A stretch of DNA of 41,896 bases from Bacilli bacterium (GCA_017886705.1 JAGHJJ010000085.1:1-41896); one strand, 5' to 3'. Counted from the stretch's first letter, positions 13,039 through 29,809 are shown. Translations and numbers: made by a program. Notes: generated by a model from the sequence alone, not told the origin.

Positions 13039-13116
13039 TTGAGAATGTTATCTACAACTTTTACTAAAGGTAATTGATATTAGAATCAATAACTAAATAT
13101 ATTTTAATAAAAGAAG

Positions 13117-13147
13117 AAAAATAGCAACTACATATAGTGCTGTTTTT
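13117..13147 (-). terminator. Terminator of 13146..13832
   Basis: AAAAATAGCAACTA-CATA-TAGTGCTGTTTTT bulged hairpin with A/T tracts on both sides. Confidence 0.6.
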
Positions 13148-13832: not shown

Positions 13833-13999
13833 TCTCCCTTTTTTGTATATTTTATATTGACATTTACACCATATTATAAGTAATTACAGTATACATTGTC
13901 AATATCATTGTATTCTTTGAAATTTATATTTGATGAAAGACATAAATCATAAACATCAACCTTTCTTCTAGGTTGATTCCTATATCAAAAGTTTGTGCT

Positions 14000-14043
14000 T
14001 TTTGAGCAGATTTCCCTATGGTGCCAAAAGACAGAATTGAACT
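14000..14043 (-). repeat. att-like site D: copy of tRNA-Thr 3' end plus N12-CTCAAAA
   Basis: 14019..14043 matches the reverse complement of 35696..35720 at 24/25 nt. Confidence 0.8.
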
Positions 14044-14091
14044 ATACAAGTAACATAGGAGATATCTTTTTAAAAAAATATTAAAAAGATG

Positions 14092-14127
14092 TTGACAAAT
14101 ATATTAGTTATTAATATAATGTTAATA
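14092..14127 (+). promoter_or_regulatory. Consensus SigA promoter overlapped by palindromic operator (probable NrtR box)
   Basis: TTGACA-17-TATAAT; GTTATTAA-TATAATG-TTAATAAC palindrome centred on the -10. Confidence 0.85.
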
Positions 14128-14163
14128 ACAAGTGAAGAAACTTGTGATTTTAATACTATATGA

Positions 14164-14182
14164 TATTAATAAAATATTAATA
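14164..14182 (+). promoter_or_regulatory. Second operator TATTAA-N7-TTAATA before pncA RBS
   Basis: TATTAA TAAAATA TTAATA directly before AGAGGAG. Confidence 0.7.
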
Positions 14183-14197
14183 AGAGGAGAGAAAAAT

Positions 14198-14791
14198 ATG
14201 AATAAAATTAAAAAATTAGAAGTTTATGAAAGTATGTTAATTATTGTTGATATAGTAAATGGTTTTGTAGAGGAGGGAAGTCTACATGATAAAAAAATAG
14301 GAAGAATAATTCCAAGACAAATTGAACTAATTAAAGAAGCACATGCTAAAGGTTCACTAGTTATCTTTGTAAAAGATGCTCATAATGAAGACGCAGTAGA
14401 ATTTAGACGTTTTGGCAATACGAAACATTGCGTAAAGGGAACGAAAGAAGCAGAGCTTGTAGATCAGTTAAAGCCTTTTGAGGAAATGGATGATACGATT
14501 TCAGTCGAAAAGAATAGTACAAGTTTTATGGAATCCCCTGATTTTAGAACGGTTGCAGCTAGTGCGAATAACATTAAAAAAGTAGAATTAGCCGGTTGCT
14601 GTACAGATATTTGTGTTTTTAATGGAGCGATGGGACTTGCTAATTACTATGACCAGTGGAATCGAGCAGTAGATATAACGGCACATGAAGATGCTATCGC
14701 AACATTTGATGAAGAACACCGTCGTGAATATGTACAATCAGCGAAACTACTTATGAGGCTACAAGGAATAAACATAGTAAGTAAGAAATGA
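14198..14791 (+). CDS. pncA: Nicotinamidase (isochorismatase/cysteine hydrolase family)
   Basis: VDIVNGF, DAH, HCV, EK, GCCTDICV catalytic and metal motifs; upstream of pncB. Start at ATG 14198 after RBS. Confidence 0.85.
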   Translation: MNKIKKLEVYESMLIIVDIVNGFVEEGSLHDKKIGRIIPRQIELIKEAHAKGSLVIFVKDAHNEDAVEFRRFGNTKHCVKGTKEAELVDQLKPFEEMDDTISVEKNSTSFMESPDFRTVAASANNIKKVELAGCCTDICVFNGAMGLANYYDQWNRAVDITAHEDAIATFDEEHRREYVQSAKLLMRLQGINIVSKK

Positions 14792-14813
14792 TAATTATTT
14801 TTTTAAAACAAGA

Positions 14814-14832
14814 TATTAACAAAAGATTAAAA
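14814..14832 (+). promoter_or_regulatory. Operator copy before pncB
   Basis: TATTAA CAAAAGA TTAAAA immediately before RBS AAGGAG. Confidence 0.6.
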
Positions 14833-14849
14833 AGAAAAGGAGAATAACT

Positions 14850-16322
14850 ATGTATAATAAAACATTAATGACAGATTTTTATGAGTTAACAATGGCCGGG
14901 ACATATTTCAATGAAGGAAAGAAAGAGGAGCAAGTATATTTTGATATTTTCTTTCGTAAGAATCCTTTTGAAGGTGGATACACAATCAGTGGAGGATTAG
15001 ATGAGACTATAAATTATATTAAAAACTTCTATTTTGGAAAAGAAGAGTTAGATTACTTAAGAAAATTAGGAAAATTCAACGAAGATTTTTTAAATTATTT
15101 AAGTACTTTAAAATTTGAAGGAGATATTTATGCTGTACCTGATGGAACAGTAGTATTTCCAAATGAACCAGTATTAACAGTAAAAGCCGATGCCGTAACA
15201 GCTCAAATATTAGAAACAGCATTACTTGCTAATTTCAATCATGGATCTTTAGTAACAACAGCAGCAAAAAGAATTACGAATGAAGCCAAAGGTATTCCAG
15301 TAATGGAGTTTGGAGCAAGACGTGCTAGAGGAATTGATTCCGCAATAGAAGCAAGTAAATGTGCATATATCGGAGGATGTGTAGGAACATCTAATACTTA
15401 TGCCGGTATGAAATATGATATCCCCGTCATGGGAACTATGGCTCACTCATTGGTAACAGAAAGTGAAGATGAATATGATGCCTTTTTAAAATATGCAAAA
15501 AGTAATCCTGATAACTGTGTCTTCCTAGTTGATACATACGATACTTTACATAGTGGTATTCCTAATGCCATCAGAGTCGCAAATGAATACCTAACACCAA
15601 ATGGATATCCCTTTAAAGGAATACGAATTGATAGTGGAGACTTAGCATATTTATCAAAAGAAGCAAGAAAAATGTTAGATGAAGCAGGATATAAGGATAC
15701 AGGAATTTGTTTATCAAACGGATTAAATGAGTATACGATCAGAGATTTAATTACCCAAGGAGCAAAGATTAATTCGATTGGTGCCGGAGATAACATTGCT
15801 GCTCCTAAAGAAAGAGTAGGAGGAGTTTATAAACTAGTAGCAGTAGAGGAAAATAAGGAAGCTAAACCAAGAATTAAAGTAAGTAATGACAGTATTAAAA
15901 CAATTAATCCTGGATATAAAAAGGTATATCGCTTCTATGACAAAGATACTGGATATGCGCTAGGAGATGTTATTACATTAAATGAAGAAGAAATTAGTAA
16001 AAATCACTATACACTAGTTCATCCAGTAGAGACATGGAAGAGGACAGAATTAGAAAATTATAATGTAAGAAGTCTATTAGTACCAGTATTTAAAAATGGA
16101 GAATTAGTATACCAAGATCCAAGTTTACAAGAAAAACAAGAATATTGTGAAAAAGAATTTGAAACACTATATCCAGAAGTAACAAGAATTGATAAGCCTC
16201 ATGAATATTACGTAGACTTATCAGACAAATTAAGAACCCTAAAACAAGAACTAATTGAATTTCATCAAAATGAAATAGCTGAAAAAGGAAAGGAATACGC
16301 CAAATGTGCAAAGAGAAGTTAG
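14850..16322 (+). CDS. pncB: Nicotinate phosphoribosyltransferase
   Basis: TDFYELTM, FFRKNPF, EFGARRA, GTMAHS, LVDTYD, RIDSGDL, GGVYKLV. Confidence 0.95.
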   Translation: MYNKTLMTDFYELTMAGTYFNEGKKEEQVYFDIFFRKNPFEGGYTISGGLDETINYIKNFYFGKEELDYLRKLGKFNEDFLNYLSTLKFEGDIYAVPDGTVVFPNEPVLTVKADAVTAQILETALLANFNHGSLVTTAAKRITNEAKGIPVMEFGARRARGIDSAIEASKCAYIGGCVGTSNTYAGMKYDIPVMGTMAHSLVTESEDEYDAFLKYAKSNPDNCVFLVDTYDTLHSGIPNAIRVANEYLTPNGYPFKGIRIDSGDLAYLSKEARKMLDEAGYKDTGICLSNGLNEYTIRDLITQGAKINSIGAGDNIAAPKERVGGVYKLVAVEENKEAKPRIKVSNDSIKTINPGYKKVYRFYDKDTGYALGDVITLNEEEISKNHYTLVHPVETWKRTELENYNVRSLLVPVFKNGELVYQDPSLQEKQEYCEKEFETLYPEVTRIDKPHEYYVDLSDKLRTLKQELIEFHQNEIAEKGKEYAKCAKRS

Positions 16323-16939
16323 AAGAATTAAATGACTATATAAAGGAATTACAGACTATTACAAAAGAAAGAAAAAAGGAAGAATTTATATATCAAGGAA
16401 CAGAACCCGTTCAAAGAAAAGGATTCATTAATGTAGAAAGTTATAATTGTAAACTACAAAATGGAATAATAATACCAAGAGAAAAAATAGTAAAAGGTAC
16501 AAACGATGGTAATGCCGCAATTATCTTACCAATCACAAAAGAAGGGAATACTTTATTAGTAGTACAACCAAGAGTATTTACAAAAGAAACAGTATGTGTA
16601 GAGTTGCCTGCTGGATATTTAGAAAAAGATGAAGATCCATTAACTGCAGGAAAAAGAGAATTAGAAGAAGAAACAGGATACGTTCCAGAAGAAATGAGAC
16701 TACTAGCTAGCTTTTATCAAGATCAAGGATGTAGTGCAGCTTATAATCATAGTATGTTAGCACTAGGTTGTAAAAAAATAAAAGAACAAAACTTAGATAA
16801 AGATGAAATCATTCGTTATTTTGAATGTAGTTTTGACGAAGCTGTAGAATTAGTAGAACGTGGATATATCACAGATATTCAATCTCAATTTACAATAGAA
16901 AAAGCAAAGTCATACGTATATCAAAAAATAAAAAAGTAA
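16304..16939 (+). CDS. Nudix hydrolase, ADP-ribose pyrophosphatase (NudF-like)
   Basis: ELPAG...E.P..A.KRELEEETGY Nudix box; LDKDE motif; NAD-cluster context. Confidence 0.85.
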   Translation: MCKEKLEELNDYIKELQTITKERKKEEFIYQGTEPVQRKGFINVESYNCKLQNGIIIPREKIVKGTNDGNAAIILPITKEGNTLLVVQPRVFTKETVCVELPAGYLEKDEDPLTAGKRELEEETGYVPEEMRLLASFYQDQGCSAAYNHSMLALGCKKIKEQNLDKDEIIRYFECSFDEAVELVERGYITDIQSQFTIEKAKSYVYQKIKK

Positions 16940-16997
16940 CATGAAATTTAGTAAAAAAGAAAAAATTTTGATACACTATAAAAAAGGAGTGATACAA

Positions 16998-18935
16998 GTG
17001 AAAGAATATGGATTTATTAGAGTAGGTGCCATAGTAAATAAATTGTCATTAGCTAATCCTATGAAAAATGCAGAAGAAATCATTAAGGAGATAAAAAAGG
17101 CAGTAACAAAAGGAGTATCGATTGTTACAACACCAGAACTTTCTTTAACAGGCTATACTTGTGGTGATTTATTCTTACAAGATCAATTGTTAATTGATAG
17201 CGAAAAATCCTTACAAAAGGTATTAGAGGAGACTAAAAAACTAGATATTATTTCCATAATAGGAATGCCAATTAGACATGATAATCAGCTGTTTAATTGT
17301 GCTGTAGTAATAGAAAAAGGGAAAATATTAGGTGTCATATCAAAGACTTATATTCCTAATTATCAAGAGTTTTATGAAGCTAGATGGTTTTCTTCTAGTA
17401 AAGAGTTAAAAACAAATGAGGTAGAATTATTAGGTCAATTAGTTCCTATCTCTACTAATTTATTATTTCAAGATAAAACACGAAAAGAGATTACTTTTGC
17501 TATTGATATTTGTGAAGATTTATGGACAGTAACTCCTCCAAGTGATTCTCATGCTTTACATGGCGCAACAATTATCTTTAATTTATCTAGTAGTAATGAA
17601 CTTATTGGAAAACAAGAGTATCGTAAGAGTTTAGTTGCTATGCAATCAGCTAAAACAATTTCTGCTTATATTTATGCATCTAGTGGAGTAATGGAGTCAA
17701 CCTCAGATTTAGTATTTGGTGGTGCTAGTATGATTTATGAAAATGGTTCTTGTTTAGCAGAAAATAAACGCTTTGAACTAGAAAGTAATCTAATTACTGC
17801 AGATATTGATGTTTTAAAATTAGCAAATGATCGTAGAAAAAATAAAAGTTTTATGCATATGGCACCAAGTCAAGAGTACAACGTAATAAAAATAGAGGTA
17901 GTAGATACCATAAAAGAATTACAAAGAGATTATAAAGAATATCCCTTTGTTCCAGCAAATGAACAAGAAAGAAATAACAGATGTGAAGAAATTATAGAAA
18001 TCCAGTCCAGTGCTCTAGCAAGAAGATTAATTCAACTTGGCAATCCAAAATGTGTCATAGGAATGTCTGGAGGACTAGACTCAACTCTTGCTTATCTTGT
18101 TATTGTAAAAGCTTTTGAAAAATTAAATAGAGATACAAAAGATATTATTGGTATTACGATGCCAGGATTTGGAACTACTGGTAGAACTTATCAGAATGCT
18201 ATAGATTTAGTAAAAGAGTATGGAGCAACACTAAAAGAAATTAGTATTAAAGATGCTTCTATTCTACATATGAAAGATATTGGCCTACCAGAAACGGATA
18301 GAAGTGTTACTTATGAAAATATTCAAGCTAGAGAACGTACTCAGATATTGATGGATGTTGCTAATATGGAAGGGGGATTAGTCATTGGTACTGGGGATTT
18401 ATCAGAACTAGCTTTGGGTTGGTGTACTTATAATGGGGATCATATGAGTATGTATGCAGTTAATACTTCTATTCCTAAGACTTTAGTTCGTTATTTAGTT
18501 GGTTGGGTAGCTGATAGGGCTGAAGGAAAGAAAAAAGAAGTTCTAAAAGATATACTAGATACACCAATTTCTCCAGAATTATTACCACCGGACGAAGCAG
18601 GAAATATTTTACAAAAAACGGAATCTAGTATCGGACCATATGTATTACATGACTTCTTTCTTTATCATTTCTTAAGATATGGAGCAACACCTAAAAAGAT
18701 ATATGTTCTAGCAAAATATACTTTTAAAAATAGTTTTACTAAGGAAGAGATAAAAAAATGGTTAAAAGTATTTATTAGACGTTTCTTTACTCAGCAATTT
18801 AAGAGAAACTGTATTCCTGATGGAGTAAAAGTAGGTAGTATTAGCTTATCTCCAAGAGGTGATTTGCGTATGCCAAGTGATGCTAGTTATGAGGCTTGGT
18901 TAAAAGAATTAGATGAGATAAAAGAAGAGGATTGA
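16998..18935 (+). CDS. nadE: Glutamine-dependent NAD+ synthetase
   Basis: Nitrilase domain (PELSLTGY, K..IPNY.EFYE.RWF, ICEDLW) plus synthetase domain (SGGLDST, ENIQARER, GTGDLSE, QQFKR). Start at GTG after AGGAG. Confidence 0.95.
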   Translation: MKEYGFIRVGAIVNKLSLANPMKNAEEIIKEIKKAVTKGVSIVTTPELSLTGYTCGDLFLQDQLLIDSEKSLQKVLEETKKLDIISIIGMPIRHDNQLFNCAVVIEKGKILGVISKTYIPNYQEFYEARWFSSSKELKTNEVELLGQLVPISTNLLFQDKTRKEITFAIDICEDLWTVTPPSDSHALHGATIIFNLSSSNELIGKQEYRKSLVAMQSAKTISAYIYASSGVMESTSDLVFGGASMIYENGSCLAENKRFELESNLITADIDVLKLANDRRKNKSFMHMAPSQEYNVIKIEVVDTIKELQRDYKEYPFVPANEQERNNRCEEIIEIQSSALARRLIQLGNPKCVIGMSGGLDSTLAYLVIVKAFEKLNRDTKDIIGITMPGFGTTGRTYQNAIDLVKEYGATLKEISIKDASILHMKDIGLPETDRSVTYENIQARERTQILMDVANMEGGLVIGTGDLSELALGWCTYNGDHMSMYAVNTSIPKTLVRYLVGWVADRAEGKKKEVLKDILDTPISPELLPPDEAGNILQKTESSIGPYVLHDFFLYHFLRYGATPKKIYVLAKYTFKNSFTKEEIKKWLKVFIRRFFTQQFKRNCIPDGVKVGSISLSPRGDLRMPSDASYEAWLKELDEIKEED

Positions 18936-18980
18936 AAGAGAAAACTGGTTGTTATATAATAACCAGCAGGAGGGTAATTA

Positions 18981-19481
18981 ATGAAGCAGTTAATAGAATT
19001 TGAAAATGGAGAAGTAAAAGATGCTAAGCTTACTTCCATGAGAGTACGTGATATTTTTGATGATTGTTTATTTAAAGAGGAAGAATTAGAAGAAGGAAAT
19101 CCTACAAAAGAATTTAATGTTGTAGAAGGCGTGATGATACAAGCTGTTTTTAATACGGAAAGACTAAATCAACATAAGCTAGAAATTGATGAAATGATTG
19201 ATGAGATTGCTAATATTGATAAAGGGCCACACTTTTTAAATATGTGTACTAGAAAAGATGGTAGTTTGTGGACTGGTGAACATTTTGTGGTAGATCAATT
19301 AATGGTTTTAGGGCTAGCTACGGAAAAATTAAAAGTACCATTAGATATTCCCAAGAAAGAATGGGGAGATTTCTTTCCATATGGAATGCCCTTTGTAATA
19401 AAGGACCAGCAGAAAACTAGTGTACCAGTAATAGGTGAAAATCCAAAAAACTATAAGACCGTGATGAAATTAATAAAGTAA
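18981..19481 (+). CDS. Conserved hypothetical protein (FLNxC..DG..WTG.H...QL..LG motif; family I associate with phages/MGEs)
   Basis: RBS GGAGGG; recognisable motif pattern, function unknown. Confidence 0.7.
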   Translation: MKQLIEFENGEVKDAKLTSMRVRDIFDDCLFKEEELEEGNPTKEFNVVEGVMIQAVFNTERLNQHKLEIDEMIDEIANIDKGPHFLNMCTRKDGSLWTGEHFVVDQLMVLGLATEKLKVPLDIPKKEWGDFFPYGMPFVIKDQQKTSVPVIGENPKNYKTVMKLIK

Positions 19482-19524
19482 AAAACAGTATAGAGGAGCA
19501 ATCCTCTTAAATTTAAATATATGA

Positions 19525-19543
19525 TATTAATAAAATGTTAATA
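19525..19543 (+). promoter_or_regulatory. Operator copy before radical SAM gene
   Basis: TATTAA TAAAATG TTAATA directly before AGGAGG. Confidence 0.75.
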
Positions 19544-19555
19544 AGGAGGATAAAT

Positions 19556-20608
19556 ATGAAAATAGTAAAGAACAAATTCGGGGAAGGAATACTTTACCAA
19601 GAAGAAGATTTAAAAGGAAAAATTTATGCAACAAGTGCAGCTTGTATGTCTGTGTGGAGTGATATGTTATCTTTTGCAAATAAATATAAAGATAGGTTTG
19701 TAAGTGAAATAGGGAATGCTGATAGTATCGTTGTATTAGGTTGTCAAGTAACAGATTTAGCAGTATTAAATGATCTAAATGTTGCAAACAAATTGCATGA
19801 AGAAACAGGAAAAGATATTTTCATGGGAGGATGTCTTGCTCAAAGAATGGATATACCATTACCAGAATATATCAAAAGATTAGATGTAGTTAGAGTAATA
19901 GGACAAGAATTAGATGACAGAAGTTTAGTTCATTATGAAAAACCCTTCTGGGTACCAGAGTTTGAAGAAAGTAAAGATAATTTAAAAGAAGGTAATCTAT
20001 TTAGAAATTATTATCCATTAAAGATTGGTGCAGGTTGCCATGGAAAGTGTAAATATTGTACCATTCGTCATACTAGAGGAGAAGGGTATGAAATGGTACC
20101 AGAAGAGCAAATTGAAGAATTTTTAAATCATGAACATGTGGTGTTAACATCTGATAGTCCTACTGTATCTCAAGTAAAAGCCTGGTGTAGGATTGCCAAA
20201 GAATGTAATAAGGAAATATCTATTAGAAATATTGAGCCACAGAACTTAATACAATGTAGAGAAGAACTATTAGAGTTAGCAGATAACCACTTATTAGATA
20301 TTGTTCACTGTCCCGTACAAAGTTTTGATTCAGAACTATTAAAAGCAATGAATAGAAGTGTTACTGCAACAAATCAAGCAGTAGACTTATTATATGAATT
20401 AAGAGAAAAAGAAGTTATTACGGCTACGAATATTATTATCGATTATATGACAGATGGAAAACTATATCCAAATCATGACATTGAGAAATTACAAGAAAAC
20501 TTTGATTATTATTCTTGGAATCCTTACTTTGATGGTAATTTTGATATGGATAGAGCAAAGCAACGATTTAAAAAATATATCACAAATGAAAAAGTAACTC
20601 AAAAATAA
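19556..20608 (+). CDS. Methylthiotransferase-like radical SAM protein (UPF0004-like N-domain plus radical SAM core, no TRAM)
   Basis: Three N-terminal Cys (AAC, LGCQV, GGCLAQ) as in MiaB/RimO/MtaB; KIGAGCHGKCKYCTIRHTRG CxxxCxxC; HCPVQS...LKAMNR. Confidence 0.8.
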   Translation: MKIVKNKFGEGILYQEEDLKGKIYATSAACMSVWSDMLSFANKYKDRFVSEIGNADSIVVLGCQVTDLAVLNDLNVANKLHEETGKDIFMGGCLAQRMDIPLPEYIKRLDVVRVIGQELDDRSLVHYEKPFWVPEFEESKDNLKEGNLFRNYYPLKIGAGCHGKCKYCTIRHTRGEGYEMVPEEQIEEFLNHEHVVLTSDSPTVSQVKAWCRIAKECNKEISIRNIEPQNLIQCREELLELADNHLLDIVHCPVQSFDSELLKAMNRSVTATNQAVDLLYELREKEVITATNIIIDYMTDGKLYPNHDIEKLQENFDYYSWNPYFDGNFDMDRAKQRFKKYITNEKVTQK

Positions 20609-20612
20609 TGAG

Positions 20613-21125
20613 TTACTTTTTCATTTGAATTTGATAAATTTTTACTTTTTCTACATGGTCTATTTGGTATAGGGAAGTATTCCTAGGAACCAGACCATCA
20701 TAGATTAGAATTCCTCCGTTTTTAATAGCAATACGTTGTGAGTAAATATTATCAGGTAGGGTAGATATTAAAATTCCTTCTTTCATAGCATAAGTATTTT
20801 GTTGCAATAGTTCTTTTAAAAGAGAAAGACTTTGTGTACCATATCCCTGATGTTGAAAAGAATCATAAACCGTATAATCTACATTTCCACCATAGAAAAA
20901 CTCATCATATAGTGTTGCTTGAAAACCAATTTCTCCGACCAATTCTAAAGTATCACATTTTACAACATCAAAAGAAAGAAAAGCAGAAGTAGCAATATTG
21001 GTATCAAAACTATTAGATAGTAATCCAATTTTATCATTGGTAATTACTGGTTGATATTCTTCTTTTGTAACCGTAGTAGGTCTACTAATAATGGTTTTAT
21101 TGATATAGTCATAAAAGTTTTGCAT
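20613..21125 (-). CDS. GNAT family N-acetyltransferase
   Basis: GNVDYTV...QHQGYGT acetyl-CoA motif A and N..SQRIA.KNGG motif. Confidence 0.85.
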   Translation of the reverse strand: MQNFYDYINKTIISRPTTVTKEEYQPVITNDKIGLLSNSFDTNIATSAFLSFDVVKCDTLELVGEIGFQATLYDEFFYGGNVDYTVYDSFQHQGYGTQSLSLLKELLQQNTYAMKEGILISTLPDNIYSQRIAIKNGGILIYDGLVPRNTSLYQIDHVEKVKIYQIQMKK

Positions 21126-21163
21126 ATCACATCTTCTTTCAAATAGGGTGTTCTTATTGTAAT

Positions 21164-22150
21164 TTATTTTTTTCTAAATTGCAAAGGCTTTTCTTCTTTT
21201 TGTATACTTAAGAATCTTTGATAATCATCCTCTGATATTTCTATAAGCAAAGGATGGTTAGGAGAATCTAGTTTTTCTACCAAATCATAGCCAAAAGAGA
21301 AAAAACTAGAAACACTTTCAAAACTTTTTTGATATTGCTGATTTACAAACCCATCTGGTTTAAAACAAATAGCAAACCTACTATTACCATCTTTTGTACT
21401 TTTACCCAGGTAGACTTCTTTAGTATTTTGCGACTGATTTGCATCTTGCGTTGTGTTAGAGGTAGATAAGTTTATTAAAGAAAAAGGAATCTCTTCTCTT
21501 TTTTTCTGATAAGCTTTTAATATTTTAGAGTCAACAGTTCCAATAGGTAAAAACTCTTCTTTAAAACTTGCTTCTTGTGTTTTTAGATTGATACTTTTGA
21601 TAACTCTAGAAATTTCTTCTCCATCAGGTAAAAAAACAGAAGAAAGATTAGATAGGAACGGTACGTTATCACGATACCATAGCCAGGAAAGATTTACAAA
21701 TACTAAAGATTTATTATCACTCAATTTCATGGTTAAGTCATAAGTGGAAAGAGAATCTGGATCTTTATGTTCTTTATCAAAATAACAAAAATCGACTTCC
21801 TGGTGAAAAGATAATGATTTCTTGTTGTCTAATGTTACCTTCATGATGCGTTTACTCATACATCGTCCTTTGGTATCATTTTCAACATATTTTAACAAGC
21901 TAGTAACACTATCATCTGTCTTTTTTATATCAAATTTCATATCTAGTTCAATATCATGACCGTTCTTTGTTTTACTATACTGTTGTGCTAATTCGATATT
22001 ATTACTAATTTCAGCAGTACGAAATAAAAACATTTCATAATAATAATTATGAACAAATTCCTTAGGTATACGCCAGTATAATTTTTTAAAGTCGTTGGAA
22101 AAAGCTAACATCTTATCTATTTTTACTTGTTGATATGACGTAAAACTCAT
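21164..22150 (-). CDS. Orphan hypothetical protein
   Basis: 328-aa ORF with RBS AAGGTG; no recognised motif. Confidence 0.7.
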   Translation of the reverse strand: MSFTSYQQVKIDKMLAFSNDFKKLYWRIPKEFVHNYYYEMFLFRTAEISNNIELAQQYSKTKNGHDIELDMKFDIKKTDDSVTSLLKYVENDTKGRCMSKRIMKVTLDNKKSLSFHQEVDFCYFDKEHKDPDSLSTYDLTMKLSDNKSLVFVNLSWLWYRDNVPFLSNLSSVFLPDGEEISRVIKSINLKTQEASFKEEFLPIGTVDSKILKAYQKKREEIPFSLINLSTSNTTQDANQSQNTKEVYLGKSTKDGNSRFAICFKPDGFVNQQYQKSFESVSSFFSFGYDLVEKLDSPNHPLLIEISEDDYQRFLSIQKEEKPLQFRKK

Positions 22151-22209
22151 ATTTTCACCTTCCTTTATAAAGTATCATAATATAATAAAGAAATTTTTGC
22201 AAAAAATAG

Positions 22210-22245
22210 TTGACAAATTTTATAGTTATTAATATAATGTTAATA
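22210..22245 (+). promoter_or_regulatory. Consensus SigA promoter overlapped by palindromic operator
   Basis: TTGACA-17-TATAAT; TAGTTATTAATATAATGTTAATAACA identical to the pncA promoter segment. Confidence 0.85.
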
Positions 22246-22280
22246 ACAGATAACAAATCTGATATTTTTGTAAAAATTGT

Positions 22281-22299
22281 TATTAACAAAAATATAATA
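22281..22299 (+). promoter_or_regulatory. Second operator copy before 22317 RBS
   Basis: TATTAA CAAAAAT ATAATA before GAAAGGAG. Confidence 0.6.
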
Positions 22300-22316
22300 A
22301 GAAAGGAGAAAGTAGT

Positions 22317-22721
22317 ATGGAAATGACAATTACAAAAGATAAAGTAGAGAGAATTTTAACGGATTATTATCGCACTAGAGAAGATATTAAAGGAACGGTA
22401 AAAATGAAAACAAAAAAAGAACAAGTTGGATACTACACAAGTGAGCATACTGCAGCAGTTACAACGATAGAACTTTCTGGAACTACAACACTTTTTGGTA
22501 CAGAAATACCAGTAAAAAGAGTGATACCGTTCGAAGAGTATGAAGGCATTTTTAAAAGCTTATTAGAAGAACAAGGTTATGAAGTAAATAAATTATGGAT
22601 TGATAATGGTGTAAATACAGAATGGACAGGTTGGGGACCAATGGAGTCTAGAGAGGAAAAGCCATATTGTAATGGAATAACAATAGATGTAGATAAACAA
22701 GTAAAAGAATACAGAAAATAA
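22317..22721 (+). CDS. Hypothetical protein heading the prs-nadD transcript
   Basis: RBS AAGGAG; 134 aa; no recognised motif. Confidence 0.75.
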   Translation: MEMTITKDKVERILTDYYRTREDIKGTVKMKTKKEQVGYYTSEHTAAVTTIELSGTTTLFGTEIPVKRVIPFEEYEGIFKSLLEEQGYEVNKLWIDNGVNTEWTGWGPMESREEKPYCNGITIDVDKQVKEYRK

Positions 22722-22741
22722 TTTATTTTTTTAATATTAGA

Positions 22742-22760
22742 TATTAACAATATATTAATA
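22742..22760 (+). promoter_or_regulatory. Operator copy before prs
   Basis: TATTAA CAATATA TTAATA before GAGAGGTG. Confidence 0.75.
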
Positions 22761-22775
22761 AGAGAGGTGAGAAAT

Positions 22776-23849
22776 ATGAATAATTTAAAGATAATTGTTT
22801 TAGATAACATGAGAGAAGTAGGAAATAATGTTAATTTAAAATTAAAAAAATTAAGAGGTGAAAATAGGGATTACTTATTAAAGATTACAGAAAGTAGATT
22901 TTCTAATGGGGAAGGTAAAGTAAAAATTGAGGATACTGTAAGAGAGAAAGATATTTATTTACTAGCAGATGTAGGAAATTATGGAATTACTTATAATATG
23001 CATGGGTTTACACATCATATGGCACCAGATGAACATTTTCAAGATATCAAAAGAACCATTTCAGCTATCTCTGGATATTCAGAAAAAGTAACTGTAATTA
23101 TGCCACTTTTATATCAATCAAGACAACATAAAAGGAAGGGAAGAGAGTCCGCAGACTGTGCTTTAGCACTACAAGAATTAGAACGATTAGGAGTAGACCA
23201 TATTATTACTTTTGATGCTCATGATCCTACAATTTCTAATGCCATTCCTAATTTACCATTTGAAAATATCTATCCAACCAATACCATTTTAGAGGATTTA
23301 TTAAAGAATGAAGATTTAAATGATATTTTAGTAATTAGTCCAGATTTAGGAGCGACAGAACGTGCTAGATACTTTGCTGAAATGTTAGATACTAATGTCG
23401 GAGCTTTTTATAAAAGACGAGATTTAACAAAAGTAGTGAATGGTAAAAATCCTATTATAGAACATACTTACATGGGACCAAGTGTAAAAGGGTGTGATGT
23501 TTTAGTAGTAGATGACATGATAGCAAGTGGTACTTCTATGTTGGAAGTAGGAGAAAAGTTAAAAAAAGATGGTGCTAATAAAGTGTATTTTATTGCAACT
23601 TTCTCCCTATTTACAGAAGGAATAGAAGAATTTGATAAAGCGTATCAAAATAATTATTTCGATAAACTATACACAACAAACCTATCTTACATTCCAGAAG
23701 AATATAGAAATAAAGAATGGCATCATACAGTAGATTGTTCCGAGAGTATTGCAGAGATTATCAATACTTTACATAATAAAGAATCGTTAAGACCGTTATT
23801 TAATGGAAAAGAGAAAATATTAACATTACGAAAGGAGAAAAAATTATGA
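22776..23849 (+). CDS. prs: Ribose-phosphate pyrophosphokinase (PRPP synthetase)
   Basis: RFSNGEG, SRQH.R.GRES, TFDAH, SPDLGA..RA, VVDDMIASGTS. Confidence 0.93.
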   Translation: MNNLKIIVLDNMREVGNNVNLKLKKLRGENRDYLLKITESRFSNGEGKVKIEDTVREKDIYLLADVGNYGITYNMHGFTHHMAPDEHFQDIKRTISAISGYSEKVTVIMPLLYQSRQHKRKGRESADCALALQELERLGVDHIITFDAHDPTISNAIPNLPFENIYPTNTILEDLLKNEDLNDILVISPDLGATERARYFAEMLDTNVGAFYKRRDLTKVVNGKNPIIEHTYMGPSVKGCDVLVVDDMIASGTSMLEVGEKLKKDGANKVYFIATFSLFTEGIEEFDKAYQNNYFDKLYTTNLSYIPEEYRNKEWHHTVDCSESIAEIINTLHNKESLRPLFNGKEKILTLRKEKKL

Positions 23850-24475
23850 AAATAGGAATATTCGGAGGAAGTTTTAATCCCCCTCATAAGATGCATAAAA
23901 ATATAGCCAAAGAATTAATTAAACACGGTTATGTCGATAAAGTTATCTTTGTACCTACAGGAACAAAATATGAATATAAAAACAACCTAGAATCAAATGC
24001 TACTAGGTATATGATGTTAACACTTATGATAGAAAATGAAAAAGATTTATCCCTAAGTAAGTACGAATTACAAGATAGGCCAGTCTACACATATGAGACT
24101 CTAGATCATTTTAAAAGAAGATATCCAGAAGATGACATTTACTTTATTTGTGGAACAGATAATTTAAGTTATATAGATCAATGGAAAAGAGGAGACTATA
24201 TCTTAAAAAACTATAAAATTTTAGTTATTAAAAGAACAACCGACGAATTAGAACCATTATTAGAAAAATATAAAAATTATCAAAAAAATATAATCGTCAC
24301 TTCTATCAAAGAAGAAACATTATCTTCTACTTATATTAGAGAAGAGATAAAGAAGAAAAAACAAGGTAATATCAAAAAATATCTAGATAAAAAAGTATAT
24401 CAATATATAAAAGAAAATCATTTATATGAAGAAAAGACGGAAAGAAAGTGTTTCTATGCTATTAAAAGTTATTAA
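23846..24475 (+). CDS. nadD: Nicotinate-nucleotide adenylyltransferase
   Basis: GIFGGSFNPPHKMH, YTYETL, FICGTD..W, LSSTYIR, YIKENHLY. Confidence 0.93.
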   Translation: MKIGIFGGSFNPPHKMHKNIAKELIKHGYVDKVIFVPTGTKYEYKNNLESNATRYMMLTLMIENEKDLSLSKYELQDRPVYTYETLDHFKRRYPEDDIYFICGTDNLSYIDQWKRGDYILKNYKILVIKRTTDELEPLLEKYKNYQKNIIVTSIKEETLSSTYIREEIKKKKQGNIKKYLDKKVYQYIKENHLYEEKTERKCFYAIKSY

Positions 24476-24582
24476 AAAACTCTAACTTTGACGAAATATA
24501 AGGTTATATCAAAAACAGAATTGAATAAGAAAATTTTGTTAAAATAACAAGTTTGTGTTAAAGTATAGCAAGAGGTGGTTTT

Positions 24583-25332
24583 ATGTTAGGATCAATTATT
24601 GGTCATATTCTAGGAGAAAATTATGGAAGAGAAGGTAGAAGTGTTAAAGATACAAAGGATATTGTTAATTTATTATCTGGTGATAACTTAATCCAAAACA
24701 AAAAGAAAATATCTGAAATTTGTGCTATTTACGATGCTATTATCAATGGAGATAGTAACTATAGTGATTATTTAGAAAAAAGTGATAGTAAAAGTGATGA
24801 TAGTATAGCAGCAATGCGTGTTACTCCTGTTGGTTTTTGCTTTGATCAATTTGAACAAATAGAAGATGAAGCAAAAGAGGCAACGATTCCTACACATGAT
24901 ACAGATGATGCAAAAAAAGCTAGTAAAGCCGTTGCACTTAGTATTTATTTGTTAAGGATTGGCATGCCAAAAAGACGATTAGAAGATTATATGAAACTAA
25001 AATATTATTCTATGAATTATGAACTTGAGGAGTTACAAGAAGATTCTTTTTCTAAAAATGATAAAGAGACAGTACCATATGCTATGGTTTGCTTTTTTAA
25101 ATCAAATTCATTTGAAAATGCGATTGCAAACGCCTTATCGATAGGCGGAGATAGTAGTACTATCACTAGTATTACAGCATCCCTTGCCGAAGCTTATTAT
25201 GGAATTCCAGAAAAAGTAGTAGAAAAATCAAGAGAAATATTGGACGATGGTACTTATAATTTATTAAAAGATAAATATTTTAGTTCCAAAGTGTACAGAA
25301 TAAGAACAGATAATAGAGGACAATATGATTAA
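24583..25332 (+). CDS. ADP-ribosylglycohydrolase (ARH/DraG) family protein, catalytically degenerate
   Basis: MLGSIIG.I.G, AAMRVTP, PTH, ETVP.A, SIGGDSST..I..SLAEAYYGIP; several Mg-binding Asp residues lost. Confidence 0.85.
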   Translation: MLGSIIGHILGENYGREGRSVKDTKDIVNLLSGDNLIQNKKKISEICAIYDAIINGDSNYSDYLEKSDSKSDDSIAAMRVTPVGFCFDQFEQIEDEAKEATIPTHDTDDAKKASKAVALSIYLLRIGMPKRRLEDYMKLKYYSMNYELEELQEDSFSKNDKETVPYAMVCFFKSNSFENAIANALSIGGDSSTITSITASLAEAYYGIPEKVVEKSREILDDGTYNLLKDKYFSSKVYRIRTDNRGQYD

Positions 25333-25894
25333 AAAAATAGCTATTAATCCAGACTGGTTTTACCATCGTATACAATTAGAAAAATTAGAAGATATTCTAA
25401 ATACTGGAGCTATTCTTTCTAGAAGACAACAGGGATATCGGAAAATGGATCATACTACTTGGAATGGACTAGATTATATTTCTTTAGCAAAAAGAGAAGA
25501 ATCGGTATGGAATAGTTCCTATAGAAGATTTATTTCTTCCTCCTATGCTTTTATTTTAGCTGGAATTCCAGTAAATAATACGAAGTATATAGAAGATTAT
25601 AATTATGAATTATGGCGTAAATTATCGAAATTGTTTCCCAGTCAGCGCTTCTCACCTTATGAAGATGAGTATCAAGTAAAAGATAAAATAAGTCTAGATA
25701 CTGTAATTGGAATTAAAATACCAGATAAAGAAAAAGACTTTTCTTCGGTGGAGTTTTATAAAGAAAAAGATTGTGCTATTGATATTGTTTTAAATAAGTT
25801 AGGAAGTAATTTAGAAAGTGTTCCTTTTATTGATATTAATGAAGGATTACAAATAGATAGATGTGATATAAAAAAATATATGAAAAATAGATAA
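25325..25894 (+). CDS. Hypothetical protein, putative ADP-ribosyltransferase fold
   Basis: FYH....L..IL.TG.ILSR, YISL strand and EDEYQV...I....IGI pattern resemble DarT/ART-like folds; overlaps the ARH gene by 8 nt. Confidence 0.5.
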   Translation: MIKKIAINPDWFYHRIQLEKLEDILNTGAILSRRQQGYRKMDHTTWNGLDYISLAKREESVWNSSYRRFISSSYAFILAGIPVNNTKYIEDYNYELWRKLSKLFPSQRFSPYEDEYQVKDKISLDTVIGIKIPDKEKDFSSVEFYKEKDCAIDIVLNKLGSNLESVPFIDINEGLQIDRCDIKKYMKNR

Positions 25895-25905
25895 GGAGAA
25901 TAAAA

Positions 25906-26382
25906 ATGGATTTTAAAGAAATTATACATATTTTACAAGAAAGAAGAAAAACAATTTCTACGATGGAGTCTTGTACTGGTGGTGGAGTTGCGAATGCCAT
26001 TACTAATTGTGAAGGCGCTAGTGAAATATTAAAGTTTAGTGCAGTAACGTATTCTAATGAATATAAAATTAAACAGGGCGTATCAAGTGAAGTAATTGAT
26101 AAATATACAGTCTATAGTATGGAAACAGCAGATGAGATGAGTAAAAAAATTACAGAGTATGCAAATAGTGATTATGGAGTAGGGATTACTGGACAATTAA
26201 ATAGACAAGATCCAGCCAATCCTGTAGGAGAGGATAATGTTGTCTACATTAGTATTTATGATAGAGAAAATAATAAGTACTATAGAGAAACCATGGAAGT
26301 TCATAAGGAAAGTAGAAAATTAAATAAAGATCATGTCATTGATAAAATCATTGAAATGTTGGAAACTATATTAAAAAAATGA
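25906..26382 (+). CDS. pncC: NMN deamidase (CinA C-terminal domain)
   Basis: ESCTGG, GAS, VTYSN..K, GITG motifs of stand-alone CinA/PncC. Confidence 0.85.
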   Translation: MDFKEIIHILQERRKTISTMESCTGGGVANAITNCEGASEILKFSAVTYSNEYKIKQGVSSEVIDKYTVYSMETADEMSKKITEYANSDYGVGITGQLNRQDPANPVGEDNVVYISIYDRENNKYYRETMEVHKESRKLNKDHVIDKIIEMLETILKK

Positions 26383-26405
26383 TAAAATATTAATGAGGTG
26401 AAAAC

Positions 26406-27155
26406 ATGAAAGAATCTACTTTAGCAAAAGTAAGAGAAGAGTATAAGAAAGTAGTAAATGAAACTAACCAGCTTTTGTCTTATAAACAAGAATTAAAATC
26501 TTTAGAACAGGATGAGAATGTAAAAAGATATCTAGAACTCCTAGAATTAGTAGATAGAGATTATGAAGCACCATCAATAGAGAAGATGATTGCTGCTGCT
26601 TATCTAAATGCCAATATAGAGAATAGTGATAGTAATCATATTATGGTATATGTCGGAACCTATCATAGAGATACTGATATGTATCGGGATAATGATACCA
26701 TAACACAAGATGATAGTAAGGCTAGTTATAAAGCATATTTAGATTTAGAAACACAAGCGGCTTATAATATTGCTATAGAAGAAGTAAGAGAATTCGAAAA
26801 AGAACACTTGACAATATATCTTCCAGTAGAAGGAGTTAGTCAAAACGATTATATGGCCAAATATTTTGAACTGCAAATATGGTTTCGTAAACAATTAATG
26901 ACACATTCTCAAAAAGAAGTGATAGGAAAATTACAAGAGAATATGGATATAAAATATCAAAAACTATCCTCAGCATGTCAAAACAATCCAACACTGCAAT
27001 TACAAGTTGGAAAACCTGCTAAACCAGTATCTTTTGACGTAGACCAATTTGTAACAACACATCCTGAGGCTGGTTTTTTAGAAGAGTTTTGTCTATCTCC
27101 TGAAAATAGAGCTAAAGTAAAACAATATAGAAATAAGCATAGTGAAAATCACTAG
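26406..27155 (+). CDS. Orphan hypothetical protein
   Basis: 249-aa ORF with RBS GAGGTG; N-terminal coiled coil. Confidence 0.7.
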   Translation: MKESTLAKVREEYKKVVNETNQLLSYKQELKSLEQDENVKRYLELLELVDRDYEAPSIEKMIAAAYLNANIENSDSNHIMVYVGTYHRDTDMYRDNDTITQDDSKASYKAYLDLETQAAYNIAIEEVREFEKEHLTIYLPVEGVSQNDYMAKYFELQIWFRKQLMTHSQKEVIGKLQENMDIKYQKLSSACQNNPTLQLQVGKPAKPVSFDVDQFVTTHPEAGFLEEFCLSPENRAKVKQYRNKHSENH

Positions 27156-27204
27156 CTTTTTTCTTGAATTATGTTATAATCAAAGTATAAATAAGAGGTG
27201 TGAT

Positions 27205-28035
27205 ATGAAAAAAGAATATAAAACTGAAGAAGAATTCTTAAAAGACTATGATCCAAAAGCTTTTGATCAATTATCTATGACATCAGATATCTTATTAATT
27301 AGTGTATCTGATCAAGAACAGACAAATTACCGTAAAACAAGTAAAAAAATGATGAGTATTCTACTAGTAAAAAGAGATGATTATCCCTATAAAGATAAAT
27401 GGTGCTTACCTGGAGGCTTCCTAAATCCTAAAACAGAAACATTAGAAGAGTGCGCTAAAAGAGTATTAAAGAGGGAAACCAATTTATCAAATATTTACTT
27501 AGAACAATTATATACCTATGATGCGATTGATAGAGACCCTAGAACCAGAGTAGTCTCTACTGCCTATATTGCTTTAATAGATAAAAATAAATTAACGGAA
27601 ATGATTAATCTTAATGCATCCTGGTTTGATATTGTTTTATTAGAAGAAAAAAATAATATTGTAGACATCACTTTAGATAATGGAAAAGACACCATTCAAC
27701 TTTCTATAAAGAAAGAACTACGTGAGAAAACAACCGATCGTTATCGTTTTATGGCAATAAAAAATGAAAGTTTAGCCTTTGATCATGCTCTGGTTATTCT
27801 AGCGGGAATTGAAAGAATAAGAAATAAAATTAATTATACTGATATTGTCTTTAATATGATGCCAGACTATTTTACTTTAGGAGAATTACAACAAGTCTAT
27901 GAAGTAATATTAAATAAAAAACTACTTGATCCTGCTTTCAGAAGAATTATTGCCAATAAAGTAGTAAAAACAAAGAAAATGAAAACTGGAGAAGGACATC
28001 GTCCATCGGCCTTATTTAAATATAAAGGAAAGTAA
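27205..28035 (+). CDS. nrtR: NrtR (Nudix-related transcriptional regulator, ADP-ribose sensing)
   Basis: W.LPGGF, degenerate Nudix box (RVLKRET), EQLYT...RDPR.RVVSTAY, LAFDH, FTL.ELQ.VYE, FRR, HRPS.LF wHTH. Confidence 0.9.
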   Translation: MKKEYKTEEEFLKDYDPKAFDQLSMTSDILLISVSDQEQTNYRKTSKKMMSILLVKRDDYPYKDKWCLPGGFLNPKTETLEECAKRVLKRETNLSNIYLEQLYTYDAIDRDPRTRVVSTAYIALIDKNKLTEMINLNASWFDIVLLEEKNNIVDITLDNGKDTIQLSIKKELREKTTDRYRFMAIKNESLAFDHALVILAGIERIRNKINYTDIVFNMMPDYFTLGELQQVYEVILNKKLLDPAFRRIIANKVVKTKKMKTGEGHRPSALFKYKGK

Positions 28036-28036
28036 T

Positions 28037-28828
28037 ATGAAGAGTGTTAAATTATTTGTAAATGATAATGAAACTTCTAAAAATGTTTCAAAAATAGTAA
28101 AAGAAAAACTAGAAAGTGCTAATTTTCAGGTAGTAGAAGATAATTATGACCTAGCTATTGCGATTGGTGGAGATGGTTCTTTCTTAAGAATGATAAAATC
28201 TTCAAACTTTAATGAAAATTGTCTCTATATTGGTATTAATGCCGGAACATTAGGCTTTGCGCAAGAAGTAAATGTAGAAGAGATTGATAAGTTTATCTTA
28301 GATTTAGAAAATAATAATTATAAAGTAGAAAATATTGGTATTCAAGAAATTGAAATTAAAACACCAGATACTATTTCTAAACAATTATCATTAAATGAAA
28401 TGATAGTAAGAGATATGGAATTAAATACTGCTAATCTAAAGGTTTTAGTAGAAGATGTGTTATTAGAAGATTTTGTAGGGGATGGACTGCTTCTAGCAAC
28501 TTCTTTTGGTTCTACTGCATATAACTTAAGTTTTGGAGGAAGTATTGTCTATAATACTTTTCATACATTGCAACTAACACCGATTGCTCCATTAAATAAT
28601 AAGTCCTATAGAAATTTATTAAACTCGGTAATCCTACCAGATAATAAAGAAATAGTAATAAAACCATGCAATCGTACCAAAAACTTATTAATTACTGTGG
28701 ATGGAGATAATAACTTCTATAAGAATGTAGATTATGTATCGTCTAAAGTAAGTGGTAGAGAAATTCAAATACTAAGAATGAAAGATTATAATTTTATTAA
28801 AAAGATTAATGATAAGTTTTTAAAATAG
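28037..28828 (+). CDS. nadK: NAD kinase
   Basis: GGDG, GTLGF, LNE, GDG...T..GSTAYNLS.GG. Confidence 0.92.
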   Translation: MKSVKLFVNDNETSKNVSKIVKEKLESANFQVVEDNYDLAIAIGGDGSFLRMIKSSNFNENCLYIGINAGTLGFAQEVNVEEIDKFILDLENNNYKVENIGIQEIEIKTPDTISKQLSLNEMIVRDMELNTANLKVLVEDVLLEDFVGDGLLLATSFGSTAYNLSFGGSIVYNTFHTLQLTPIAPLNNKSYRNLLNSVILPDNKEIVIKPCNRTKNLLITVDGDNNFYKNVDYVSSKVSGREIQILRMKDYNFIKKINDKFLK

Positions 28829-28852
28829 GAACATACTACTACTGGTGATAGT

Positions 28853-29788: not shown

Positions 29789-29809
29789 TAAGTAGCAGGA
29801 TGTGATAGC

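Follow-up and report, generated by a model that had tools for sequence, protein, structure and literature searches.

The DNA analysed here, called the window throughout, is a stretch of 41,896 nucleotides from a Bacilli bacterium (GCA_017886705.1, JAGHJJ010000085.1:1-41896) and represents one whole contig (C5) of an assembly of 1.64 Mb in 123 contigs with 28.9% G+C. Positions 14092-28828 hold a cluster of genes for the synthesis and recycling of nicotinamide adenine dinucleotide (NAD), interleaved with genes of other kinds. In a preliminary description made from the sequence, the cluster was read as a dedicated module that restores NAD after attack by NADases or ADP-ribosylating toxins. The comparisons reported here point with good probability to a different role, the everyday NAD(P) supply of the cell. 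The source genome (G000) is 77% complete and 2.7% contaminated, and its relatives carry the titles Bacilli, Tenericutes or Mycoplasmatota; G003, G006, G012, G013, G014, G016 and G018 denote genomes of the same genus, and L-numbers denote retrieved loci.

All nine named NAD genes are found within 14092-28828, each on the + strand and in the place first assigned to it, by matches to Pfam and NCBIfam; the cluster proteins were also scanned against PHROG and PADLOC. The first gene encodes a PncA-like nicotinamidase of the isochorismatase family (14198-14791; PF00857, 85.6 bits). Its open reading frame (ORF) opens at a GTG at 14132, and the true start is likely the ATG at 14198, which sits behind an AGGAG motif downstream of the first promoter; the alignments of relatives begin at residue 22-29. 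The protein scores 18.9 bits against the NCBIfam PncA equivalog (cut-off 174), and is assigned to PncA because of its conserved position before pncB. The nicotinate phosphoribosyltransferase gene pncB (14850-16322) matches NF006695 with 616 bits (cut-off 469), and is followed by a Nudix hydrolase gene (16304-16939) whose product is closest, among proteins of solved structure, to ADP-ribose pyrophosphatases and NudF (E 6e-19), and by nadE for a glutamine-dependent NAD synthetase (16941-18935, 895 bits). Further along are prs for a phosphoribosyl pyrophosphate (PRPP) synthetase of the PRK06827 type (22767-23849; 459 bits, cut-off 327), nadD for nicotinate mononucleotide (NaMN) adenylyltransferase (23846-24475), pncC with a CinA domain for nicotinamide mononucleotide (NMN) deamidase (25906-26382) and nadK for NAD kinase (28037-28828), the latter three from Pfam and NCBIfam matches.

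The regulator gene nrtR (27142-28035) encodes a degenerate Nudix domain joined to an NrtR winged helix (PF21906 NrtR_WHD, 57.6 bits, cut-off 27), and scores 147 bits against the equivalog NF050029, under the cut-off of 400. Its start is likely the ATG at 27205, because the alignments of relatives begin at residue 21-22. The Nudix box consensus is REUxEExGU. The box of the stand-alone Nudix protein reads RELEEETGY and is intact, whereas that of NrtR reads RVLKRETNL and is degenerate, as expected for an enzyme and a sensor, respectively.

On paper, these genes form a complete loop, as had been proposed. Nicotinamide is converted to nicotinate, NaMN, nicotinate adenine dinucleotide, NAD and NADP in turn; NMN is returned to NaMN, and ADP-ribose is returned through ribose-5-phosphate to PRPP, so that both products of NAD cleavage are covered. 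The eight embedded non-pathway ORFs reported among them are likewise all real open frames.

Promoters and candidate NrtR operators

Two promoters matching TTGACA-17-TATAAT at 12 of 12 positions, P1 (14092-14120, +) and P2 (22210-22238, +), are the only sigma-70-type matches of this quality on the + strand of 13000-31500 in a consensus scan, and both coincide with perfect copies of a 23-bp palindrome, GTTATTAA-N7-TTAATAAC. The start coordinate given in the preliminary description, 14092, is the first base of P1. The perfect palindromes, which are candidate NrtR operators, overlap the -10 element of P1 (14107-14129) and of P2 (22225-22247). Four operator-like copies with two mismatches each are found between P1 and the pncA start (14162-14184), directly upstream of a radical S-adenosylmethionine (SAM) enzyme gene (19523-19545), after P2 and before the unnamed gene u22317 as a second copy (22279-22301) and 5 nt upstream of prs (22740-22762). 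With up to three mismatches, nine copies occur in the window, compared with a mean of 2.8 in shuffled sequences, and none of 100 shuffles reached nine. In the whole genome, 12 sites with up to two mismatches were found, six of them in the cluster, compared with seven for a reversed-pattern control. The two-mismatch sites elsewhere in the genome are at C2:8415, C3:962, C8:3470, C13:3966, C26:1626 and C74:615.

The palindromes recur in relatives at comparable positions. In other genera, pncA and prs are each preceded by tandem boxes at distances of about 70 and 16-18 nt. Here the tandem pair precedes u22317 and an extra box precedes prs, and it looks as if u22317 has been placed behind the prs promoter; this holds for the genus. 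Further, the radical SAM gene of the G003 and G013 loci has its own box 7-10 nt upstream.

According to the text available to us of the study that described the family (PMC2330246), the palindromes bound by NrtR at NAD genes are 21 bp long, and ADP-ribose releases the protein from them in vitro. We infer from their position and recurrence, and from this published behaviour of the NrtR family, that the palindromes are NrtR operators and define two operons. The first would comprise pncA, pncB, the Nudix gene and nadE, followed by u18981 and the radical SAM gene, and would end at a terminator-like hairpin of 19 pairs (20583-20627) between the convergent radical SAM and GNAT genes. The second would comprise u22317, prs, nadD, an ADP-ribosylglycohydrolase (ARH)-like gene, a gene for a protein with a predicted ADP-ribosyltransferase (ART) fold, pncC, u26406, nrtR and nadK. 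It probably also takes in uvdE and the racemase gene (murI), with its end at a terminator-like hairpin (30514-30535).

If it behaves like the characterised NrtR proteins, NrtR would sit on both promoters and repress the operons until ADP-ribose from NAD-consuming reactions lifts the repression. Derepression would then raise salvage (PncA, PncB, NadD and NadE), recycling (PncC for NMN, and the Nudix enzyme and Prs for ADP-ribose) and the formation of NADP through NadK. An ADP-ribose-sensing NrtR had been part of the preliminary description. A regulator of the NrtR type is indeed present, and ADP-ribose is the effector published for its family (PMC2330246, in the text available to us), while its binding to these sites and its response to ADP-ribose here are presumed from that family.

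Synteny and sole copies of the NAD genes

The gene order, which the preliminary description had proposed to check in related metagenome-assembled genomes, is conserved. Seven of the eight genus loci fetched around Prs share one frame, namely pncA-pncB-nudix-nadE-[slot 1]-u22317-prs-nadD-[slot 2]-pncC-[slot 3]-nrtR-nadK-[slot 4]-uvdE-racemase, and the eighth (G016) has Prs alone. The same frame is found in contigs of metagenome-assembled genomes titled uncultured Bacilli, Tenericutes or Mycoplasmatota, or Candidatus Onthousia. This shared order, together with a number of palindromes beyond that of the shuffles, indicates that the clustering is not due to chance. From these sequence comparisons, the locus is judged chromosomal, syntenic across the genus and beyond, and vertically inherited.

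The contents of the slots vary, as counted among the genus loci spanning each slot with duplicate contigs merged. In slot 1, u18981 was found in six of nine loci, the radical SAM gene in four, GNAT in five, u21164 in four and u22317 in eight. Slot 2 holds the ARH gene in five and u25325, the ART-fold gene, in seven of ten loci, and slot 3 holds u26406 in four of nine. In slot 2 of three relatives, a 3-kb cassette that is absent from the window is inserted between nadD and ARH or u25325 (L004:3857-6865, L005:4200-7211 and L008:6851-9859). It encodes PnuC (162 bits), a NadR-like protein (CTP_transf_like and AAA_28), a 128-aa protein with a Cys- and Tyr-rich C-terminus whose last residue is Cys, and a 304-aa radical SAM enzyme (Radical_SAM and Fer4_12). 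Slot 4, between nadK and uvdE, is empty in the window and holds a 167-180-aa DUF7666 protein in several relatives (L002:13659-14162, L005:761-1276, L008:3280-3789 and, after nadK on a more distant contig, L043:14822-15364). Species-variable cargo (u18981, GNAT, u21164 and u26406, and the pnuC-nadR cassettes of relatives) thus occupies three or four fixed slots.

Duplicate housekeeping copies of prs, nadD or nadE elsewhere, which a separate recovery module would have implied, did not come to light. A tblastn search of the 77% complete source genome with 20 cluster proteins found no second copy of any NAD enzyme, and pncB, nadE, prs, nadD, pncC and nadK are sole copies. Only NrtR has a paralogue (29% identical, G000:C61:3029-3595). 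Because the source assembly is incomplete, the relatives were checked as well. NadD-type proteins give one match per genome, the remaining matches being CoaD-sized or 393-aa proteins, and a single large NadE and a single PncB were each found in four of five genus genomes, the exception to single copies being G013. NadA was found in none of five genus genomes, four of them 92-94% complete, while the positive control was found in 12 of 14 reference genomes. The Prs domain PF13793 gives at most one match per genome and is present in 13 of 18 genus genomes; 12 of these matches belong to a divergent type, with E near 1e-16 to 1e-18, and the thirteenth is weak and short (E 1e-5). In comparison, of 12 genomes representing other families of the class, 10 have a classical Prs (E 1e-34 to 1e-54).

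Sole copies and conserved chromosomal synteny therefore argue for a housekeeping NAD route and not for an added counter-NADase module. We consider it probable that this region provides the housekeeping NAD(P) of a lineage of gut Bacilli that is niacin-auxotrophic and has a small genome, and that its genes are arranged in two NrtR-repressed operons. The earlier proposal, that of a dedicated recovery module resembling the phage NAD reconstitution pathway, with the embedded orphans as counter-attack parts, is favoured by a loop that closes on both cleavage products and by the embedded ARH-like and ART-fold genes. It is very unlikely all the same, as the searches detected no NAD genes outside the cluster, nor any de novo route. 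Its synteny is chromosomal and kept across genera, although the fast turnover of slot contents is as in conflict loci. The membership of u18981 in a phage protein family would fit such a module; however, scans of the window genes revealed no mobile-element or phage genes within or beside the cluster, and the PADLOC scan of the cluster gave no defence family at a meaningful score. The response of the NrtR family to ADP-ribose in vitro (PMC2330246, in the text available to us) also agrees with a recovery module, but any cell with an NrtR regulon would answer NAD cleavage likewise, so this does not set the cluster apart as a counter-measure. Three PADLOC matches, two to the ARH-like protein (E about 0.003) and one to the Nudix protein (8e-5), were treated as noise.

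The divergence of Prs raises another possibility. Prs is the only PF00156 protein found in the source genome, and the only PF00156 match also in G014, G016 and G018, with none in G012. Prs and PncB could then form a pair like Adps and Namat of the phage pathway NARP1, the first converting ADP-ribose to ADP-ribose pyrophosphate and the second joining this with nicotinamide to give NAD. In the part of the report available to us, Adps is PRPP synthetase (PRPS)-like, lacks the C-terminal alpha11-alpha12 region of PRPS and acts on ADP-ribose, and Namat belongs to the PncB superfamily (PMC13586617). Yet the Prs of the cluster includes the C-terminal region that Adps lacks, since its alignment with E. 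coli and human PRPS extends as far as residue 346 of 360, and PncB passes the nicotinate phosphoribosyltransferase equivalog. The cluster also encodes PncA, NadD and NadE, three enzymes that only the nicotinate route requires, and a Nudix ADP-ribose pyrophosphatase to make ribose-5-phosphate. We regard such a pair as extremely improbable here. Under the housekeeping reading, Prs appears to be dedicated to PncB, and prs would belong to the NAD regulon because PRPP seems to be made mainly for PncB, Prs being the only PF00156 protein found. Also, salvage of purine or pyrimidine bases via PRPP seems absent in G000, G014, G016 and G018, where PF00156 is represented by Prs only.

The surroundings of the cluster are those of a chromosome. 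Upstream, at 4114-11752, are genes for SpoIIGA and sigma-E and for two large SpaA/thioester-domain surface proteins, or adhesins, of 813 and 1158 aa, in a genome of 1.6 Mb; a thymidine kinase gene is also found on this side. An orphan 228-aa ORF (13146-13832, -) diverges from pncA behind a 12/12 promoter match (13902-13873); it has no family above cut-off, and a 94% identical copy adjoins pncA in G006. Downstream, the genes for UvdE and a Glu/Asp racemase (28853-30526, +) are conserved neighbours by family matches and synteny, and are followed by acyltransferases and an acyl-CoA ligase-like gene.

Radical SAM, ART-fold and other embedded genes

The preliminary description had treated the embedded genes as undescribed components, and their conservation divides them. 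The radical SAM gene, u22317 and u25325 recur in NAD clusters of other lineages, whereas u18981, GNAT, u21164 and u26406 vary. The three recurring families travel with NAD genes far beyond the genus, and most likely take part, under shared regulation, in NAD or ADP-ribose metabolism.

The radical SAM gene (19556-20608, +, within an ORF of 19535-20608) encodes a TRAM-less MiaB/RimO-like enzyme of 350 aa from the ATG at 19556. Its UPF0004 domain (PF00919) scores 22 bits, under the cut-off of 27, and its radical SAM domain (PF04055) scores 55 bits. Three N-terminal cysteines (C30, C63 and C93) and the CxxxCxxC cysteines (C161, C165 and C168) are invariant in 20 sequences, and a Pfam scan found no TRAM domain. 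The enzyme scores 72 bits against TIGR00089 (cut-off 251), and 40-60 bits against the MiaB, RimO and MtaB equivalogs (314-357). No match was found at E <=0.01 among PDB sequences, and none in viral_contigs with single-protein patterns. Homologue clusters number 456, of which the best 120 are 65-96% identical and 343-364 aa long, save one fragment. The family ranges from gut Bacilli to environmental small-genome microbes, with some phage-like contigs.

A metagenome scan with the radical SAM alignment retrieved 80 loci. Among those of 63-78% identity, the gene is inside NAD clusters in all ten loci with enough flank to judge (L040-L046, L050, L052 and L053; the 2-kb L047 was left out), in arrangements such as pncA-pncB-nudix-nadE-rSAM-nadD-pncC-nrtR-nadK and nadE-u22317like-rSAM-prs-ARH-nadD-pncC-nrtR-nadK, where rSAM stands for the radical SAM gene. 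By tblastn with the window proteins, NrtR was detected in 21, NadD in 19, NadE in 12 and PncB in 10 of the 80 loci, many of which are contigs of only 1-4 kb. At 58 distant loci (<=56% identity), the commonest Pfam families among the 142 immediate neighbours were NUDIX (12), NAD_synthase (7), PnuC, isochorismatase and CTP_transf_like (6 each), AAA_28 and QRPTase_N (3 each), and ARH and NrtR_WHD (2 each). Among 140 control ORFs of these contigs, taken at distances above 5 kb, the counts were Fer4_12 4 and ABC_tran, CBS and HNH_3 3 each, with NUDIX, NAD_synthase, PnuC and CTP_transf_like all outside the 25 commonest families. The radical SAM enzyme may modify a nucleotide or protein of the NAD pathway rather than tRNA.

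Some of the radical SAM contigs are phage-like, with HNH, NUMOD4, NrdD, Thg1 and RNA ligase genes. Some distant loci (within L056-L118) have genes for RNA ligase, the T4 Rnl2 C-domain, HAD_SAK_2 and RlaP beside NAD genes, together with phage-like genes, and the RNA-repair genes there may point to a connection between RNA repair and NAD salvage in large phages. In addition, NAD clusters of related low-GC contigs hold further, mutually distant radical SAM enzymes (L024:3970-5217; L043:944-2221 and 12248-13135; L044:4749-7435; L046:4757-5599). One of those on L043 has an operator-like box (12211) 14 nt upstream, and FMN-reductase-like and extra NMNAT-like genes adjoin the L043 enzymes.

The second recurring family is represented by u25325 (25325-25894, +), for which an ART-like label had been given. 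No Pfam, NCBIfam, PHROG or PADLOC family matches it, so the label finds no counterpart at the level of sequence families, while the fold predicted for it agrees with the label. The AF2 model (pLDDT 81, pTM 0.82) matches the toxin DarT on top in Foldseek (E 4.7e-4, probability 1.0; TM 0.43), and in VIA it matches DarT with Z 7.8 (133 residues, rmsd 4.1) and Tpt1 with 6.9. The top structural matches are ART folds almost throughout, including DarT, Tpt1/KptA, CteC, cholera and heat-labile toxin A1, pierisin and scabin. A profile search gave 277 representatives at E <=0.001. A set of 60 diverse members shows E115 in every sequence and conservation of at least 90% at H14, Y51, S53, R108 and S110, and none of them has a Pfam ART family match. 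The DarT family PF14487 was found neither in u25325, nor in the 60 members, nor in a six-frame search of the source genome. A phmmer search against PDB sequences gave nothing meaningful (E 0.11), and nothing was found by tblastn among 50,697 phage records. In the Atlas, all matches of u25325 are to clusters without a name, of which several include viral members; the score is 0.94 and few features are shared, which makes this a lead only.

The gene is found between nadD and pncC in 17 of 22 retrieved genome loci, down to 36-38% identity; of the others, one has pncC alone adjoining and four are in other contexts. In the window, it overlaps the stop of the ARH-like gene (24583-25332, +) by 8 nt. 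The family match behind the ARH-like label stands, and is confined to the C-terminal half of the ADP-ribosylglycohydrolase profile (PF03747, positions 118-281 of 287). ARH relatives of 293 aa carry GDxxG, FTDDT and GGDTDT, acidic motifs of the N- and C-terminal parts that we take to be metal-binding; in the same places, the window copy has IIGHILG, nothing and GGDSST. Because the N-terminal motifs are missing and GGDSS stands where relatives have GGDTD, the window protein reads as probably decaying or inactive. ARH genes recur in NAD clusters of relatives and in radical SAM loci, and an ARH gene is a neighbour of NrtR in Streptomyces, as described in the text available to us (PMC2330246). The ART-fold protein may be an NAD-consuming ADP-ribosyl transferase whose by-products re-enter the loop, and in strains with an intact ARH, its product could be reversed by ARH.

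The third family, u22317 (22317-22721, +), is a leader protein of 134 aa, the first gene behind the operator, with two alpha plus beta-hairpin repeats in a confident predicted model. That model has no Foldseek match in PDB at E <=0.001, and its best VIA-wide Z is 5.2, under the tool's stated noise level. Only 15 close homologue clusters were found. Relatives of 27-33% identity are likewise first genes, 36-73 nt behind a box with 0-1 mismatch in L041-L044, and L031 is alike.

The variable genes are more heterogeneous. The product of u18981 (18981-19481, +) is a member of the phage family phrog_26039 (PHROG), and all of its neighbours in two phage contexts are hypothetical and uninformative. A GNAT acetyltransferase (Acetyltransf_3 in Pfam; 20613-21125, -) and u21164 (21164-22150, -) are cargo of slot 1, and u26406 (26406-27155, +) is cargo of slot 3. 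Neither u21164 nor u26406 has a Pfam, NCBIfam, PHROG or PADLOC family, and u26406 has no usable Atlas match.

The genes in the slots could themselves be NAD-linked conflict or toxin-immunity cargo (ART-fold with ARH, GNAT with u21164, u18981 and u26406) carried in a highly expressed, ADP-ribose-induced operon, with no role in NAD supply. Within one genus, some species have them and others lack them, and in G006 u22317 shows only 37% identity next to a Prs of 94% identity. The relation of u18981 to phage proteins points the same way. For the ART-fold gene, the overlap with ARH is like that of a coupled pair and the closest folds are DarT and secreted ART toxins, but it keeps its place between nadD and pncC in homologues of 93% to as low as 36% identity. 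An adjoining ARH or macrodomain is usually absent; ARH-like genes neighbour it in five of ten genus loci, and Pfam scans of the cluster found no macrodomain of the DarG type. The gene therefore fits vertical inheritance with the operon and not a mobile toxin-antitoxin pair. As the window ARH also looks inactive and PADLOC gave no meaningful matches, the cargo reading is judged unlikely.

Interpretation and known systems

New here are three conserved components, namely the radical SAM enzyme, the ART-fold protein and the leader protein; the remainder is an ordinary NrtR-controlled salvage locus. That these three are genuine, undescribed parts of NAD or ADP-ribose metabolism under NrtR, with definite roles, is a tentative proposal, which we hold to be possible though rather less than evenly probable. 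The roles would be a radical, possibly sulfur-inserting, modification of an NAD-pathway nucleotide or enzyme, and a cycle of ADP-ribosylation by ART and, where intact, ARH, from which nicotinamide and ADP-ribose would enter the loop and determine the signal for NrtR.

Several observations weigh against the account given here, in its housekeeping as well as its regulatory and novel parts. The source genome is incomplete, and the term sole copy leans on the relatives. No Prs match was found in five of 18 genus genomes, and one of these, G012 (95% complete, 7 contigs), keeps PncB and NadE, which fits poorly with a PncB that needs Prs. A second NadE and a second PncB are present in G013 (2.1 Mb, 7% contamination). 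The palindrome has a core of TTAA-N7-TTAA compared with the published GT-N7-AC, so its assignment to NrtR goes by position and recurrence only; the GT-N7-AC core is that of most NrtR groups, and divergent motifs are described for some Firmicutes groups in the text available to us (PMC2330246). The ART fold comes from a predicted model whose scores are moderate (TM 0.43, Z <8), though the list of matches is coherent, and hhalign against four DarT sequences gave a probability of 9.6% with only the Glu motif aligned, the invariant Glu falling on the DarT Glu motif in this sole aligned segment. We therefore speak of an unnamed ART-fold family and not of DarT. The radical SAM enzyme was not found at E <=1e-40 in 300 class or 399 phylum genomes and occurs in only four of nine genus loci, which makes it dispensable for NAD synthesis as such and places its metagenomic spread mostly outside the sampled relatives. 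Moreover, the context loci were fetched using the genes under question, and show the positions of homologues and not their frequency within NAD clusters. Finally, RNA-library contigs from four metatranscriptome runs of one study cover the cluster including the embedded ORFs, with one 5.8-kb contig covering 14120-19949, but such contigs cannot prove transcription or give transcript ends, starts, strand or level.

Two details of the RNA-library contigs may be added. Some begin at 14120-14175, just after P1, which is a weak hint only. At position 16922, 17 nt before the Nudix stop and beside the nadE start, one base is missing in contigs of three runs (X1-X3), and this may be a strain variant that changes the Nudix C-terminus or fuses the Nudix and nadE frames.

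The core result is a correction, in that an apparent counter-defence island is the only NAD supply found in the cell. It is typical of host-dependent small genomes that a whole cofactor pathway is gathered under one repressor, and the locus is a clean case of fixed insertion slots within an essential operon. To our knowledge, NAD biosynthesis is regarded as fully mapped. The radical SAM gene stands beside nadE, nadD, Nudix/NrtR and pnuC in dozens of unrelated contigs, and the ART-fold gene is fixed between nadD and pncC, which suggests steps or controls outside the textbooks. An analysis of NAD-utilising systems by de Souza and Aravind in 2012 reportedly may bear on the conserved unknowns. Both the radical SAM and the ART-fold proteins are small and open to standard assays.

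Among known systems, the radical SAM enzyme resembles the MiaB/MtaB/RimO family (TIGR00089) in its UPF0004-like domain with three invariant cysteines and its CxxxCxxC core. It differs in lacking TRAM, in its length of 350 aa, in scores far under the family cut-offs and in its neighbours, which are NAD genes and not translation genes. Literature searches aimed at such a link found no paper connecting radical SAM enzymes to NrtR or to these NAD gene neighbourhoods. Similarly, DarT and Tpt1/KptA are the best structural matches to the u25325 model, but u25325 and the 60 family members have no Pfam match to DarT or Tpt1, and u25325, unlike DarT, holds a fixed place in a metabolic operon with no DarG-type macrodomain neighbour.

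The NrtR regulons described by Rodionov et al. (2008; PMC2330246) are close in kind, with a Nudix-related repressor clustered with Preiss-Handler genes and tandem palindromic operators at promoters; in the text available to us, prs and ADP-ribosylglycohydrolase are regulon members elsewhere. Here, in contrast, all steps including nadK, pncC, the ADP-ribose pyrophosphatase and prs are in one locus, and the Prs of the cluster is the only Prs, whereas that of the Shewanella prs-nadV arrangement is a second copy (PMC2330246). The regulon also adds radical SAM, ART-fold and leader proteins, and the word 'radical' is absent from the main text of that paper, supplementary tables aside. With the phage system NARP1, the cluster shares the rebuilding of NAD from cleavage products with PRPS-like and phosphoribosyltransferase-superfamily enzymes. 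NARP1 is a two-enzyme phage shortcut, whereas the cluster belongs to the chromosome and encodes a Preiss-Handler route of several steps for housekeeping, in which Prs and PncB look canonical.

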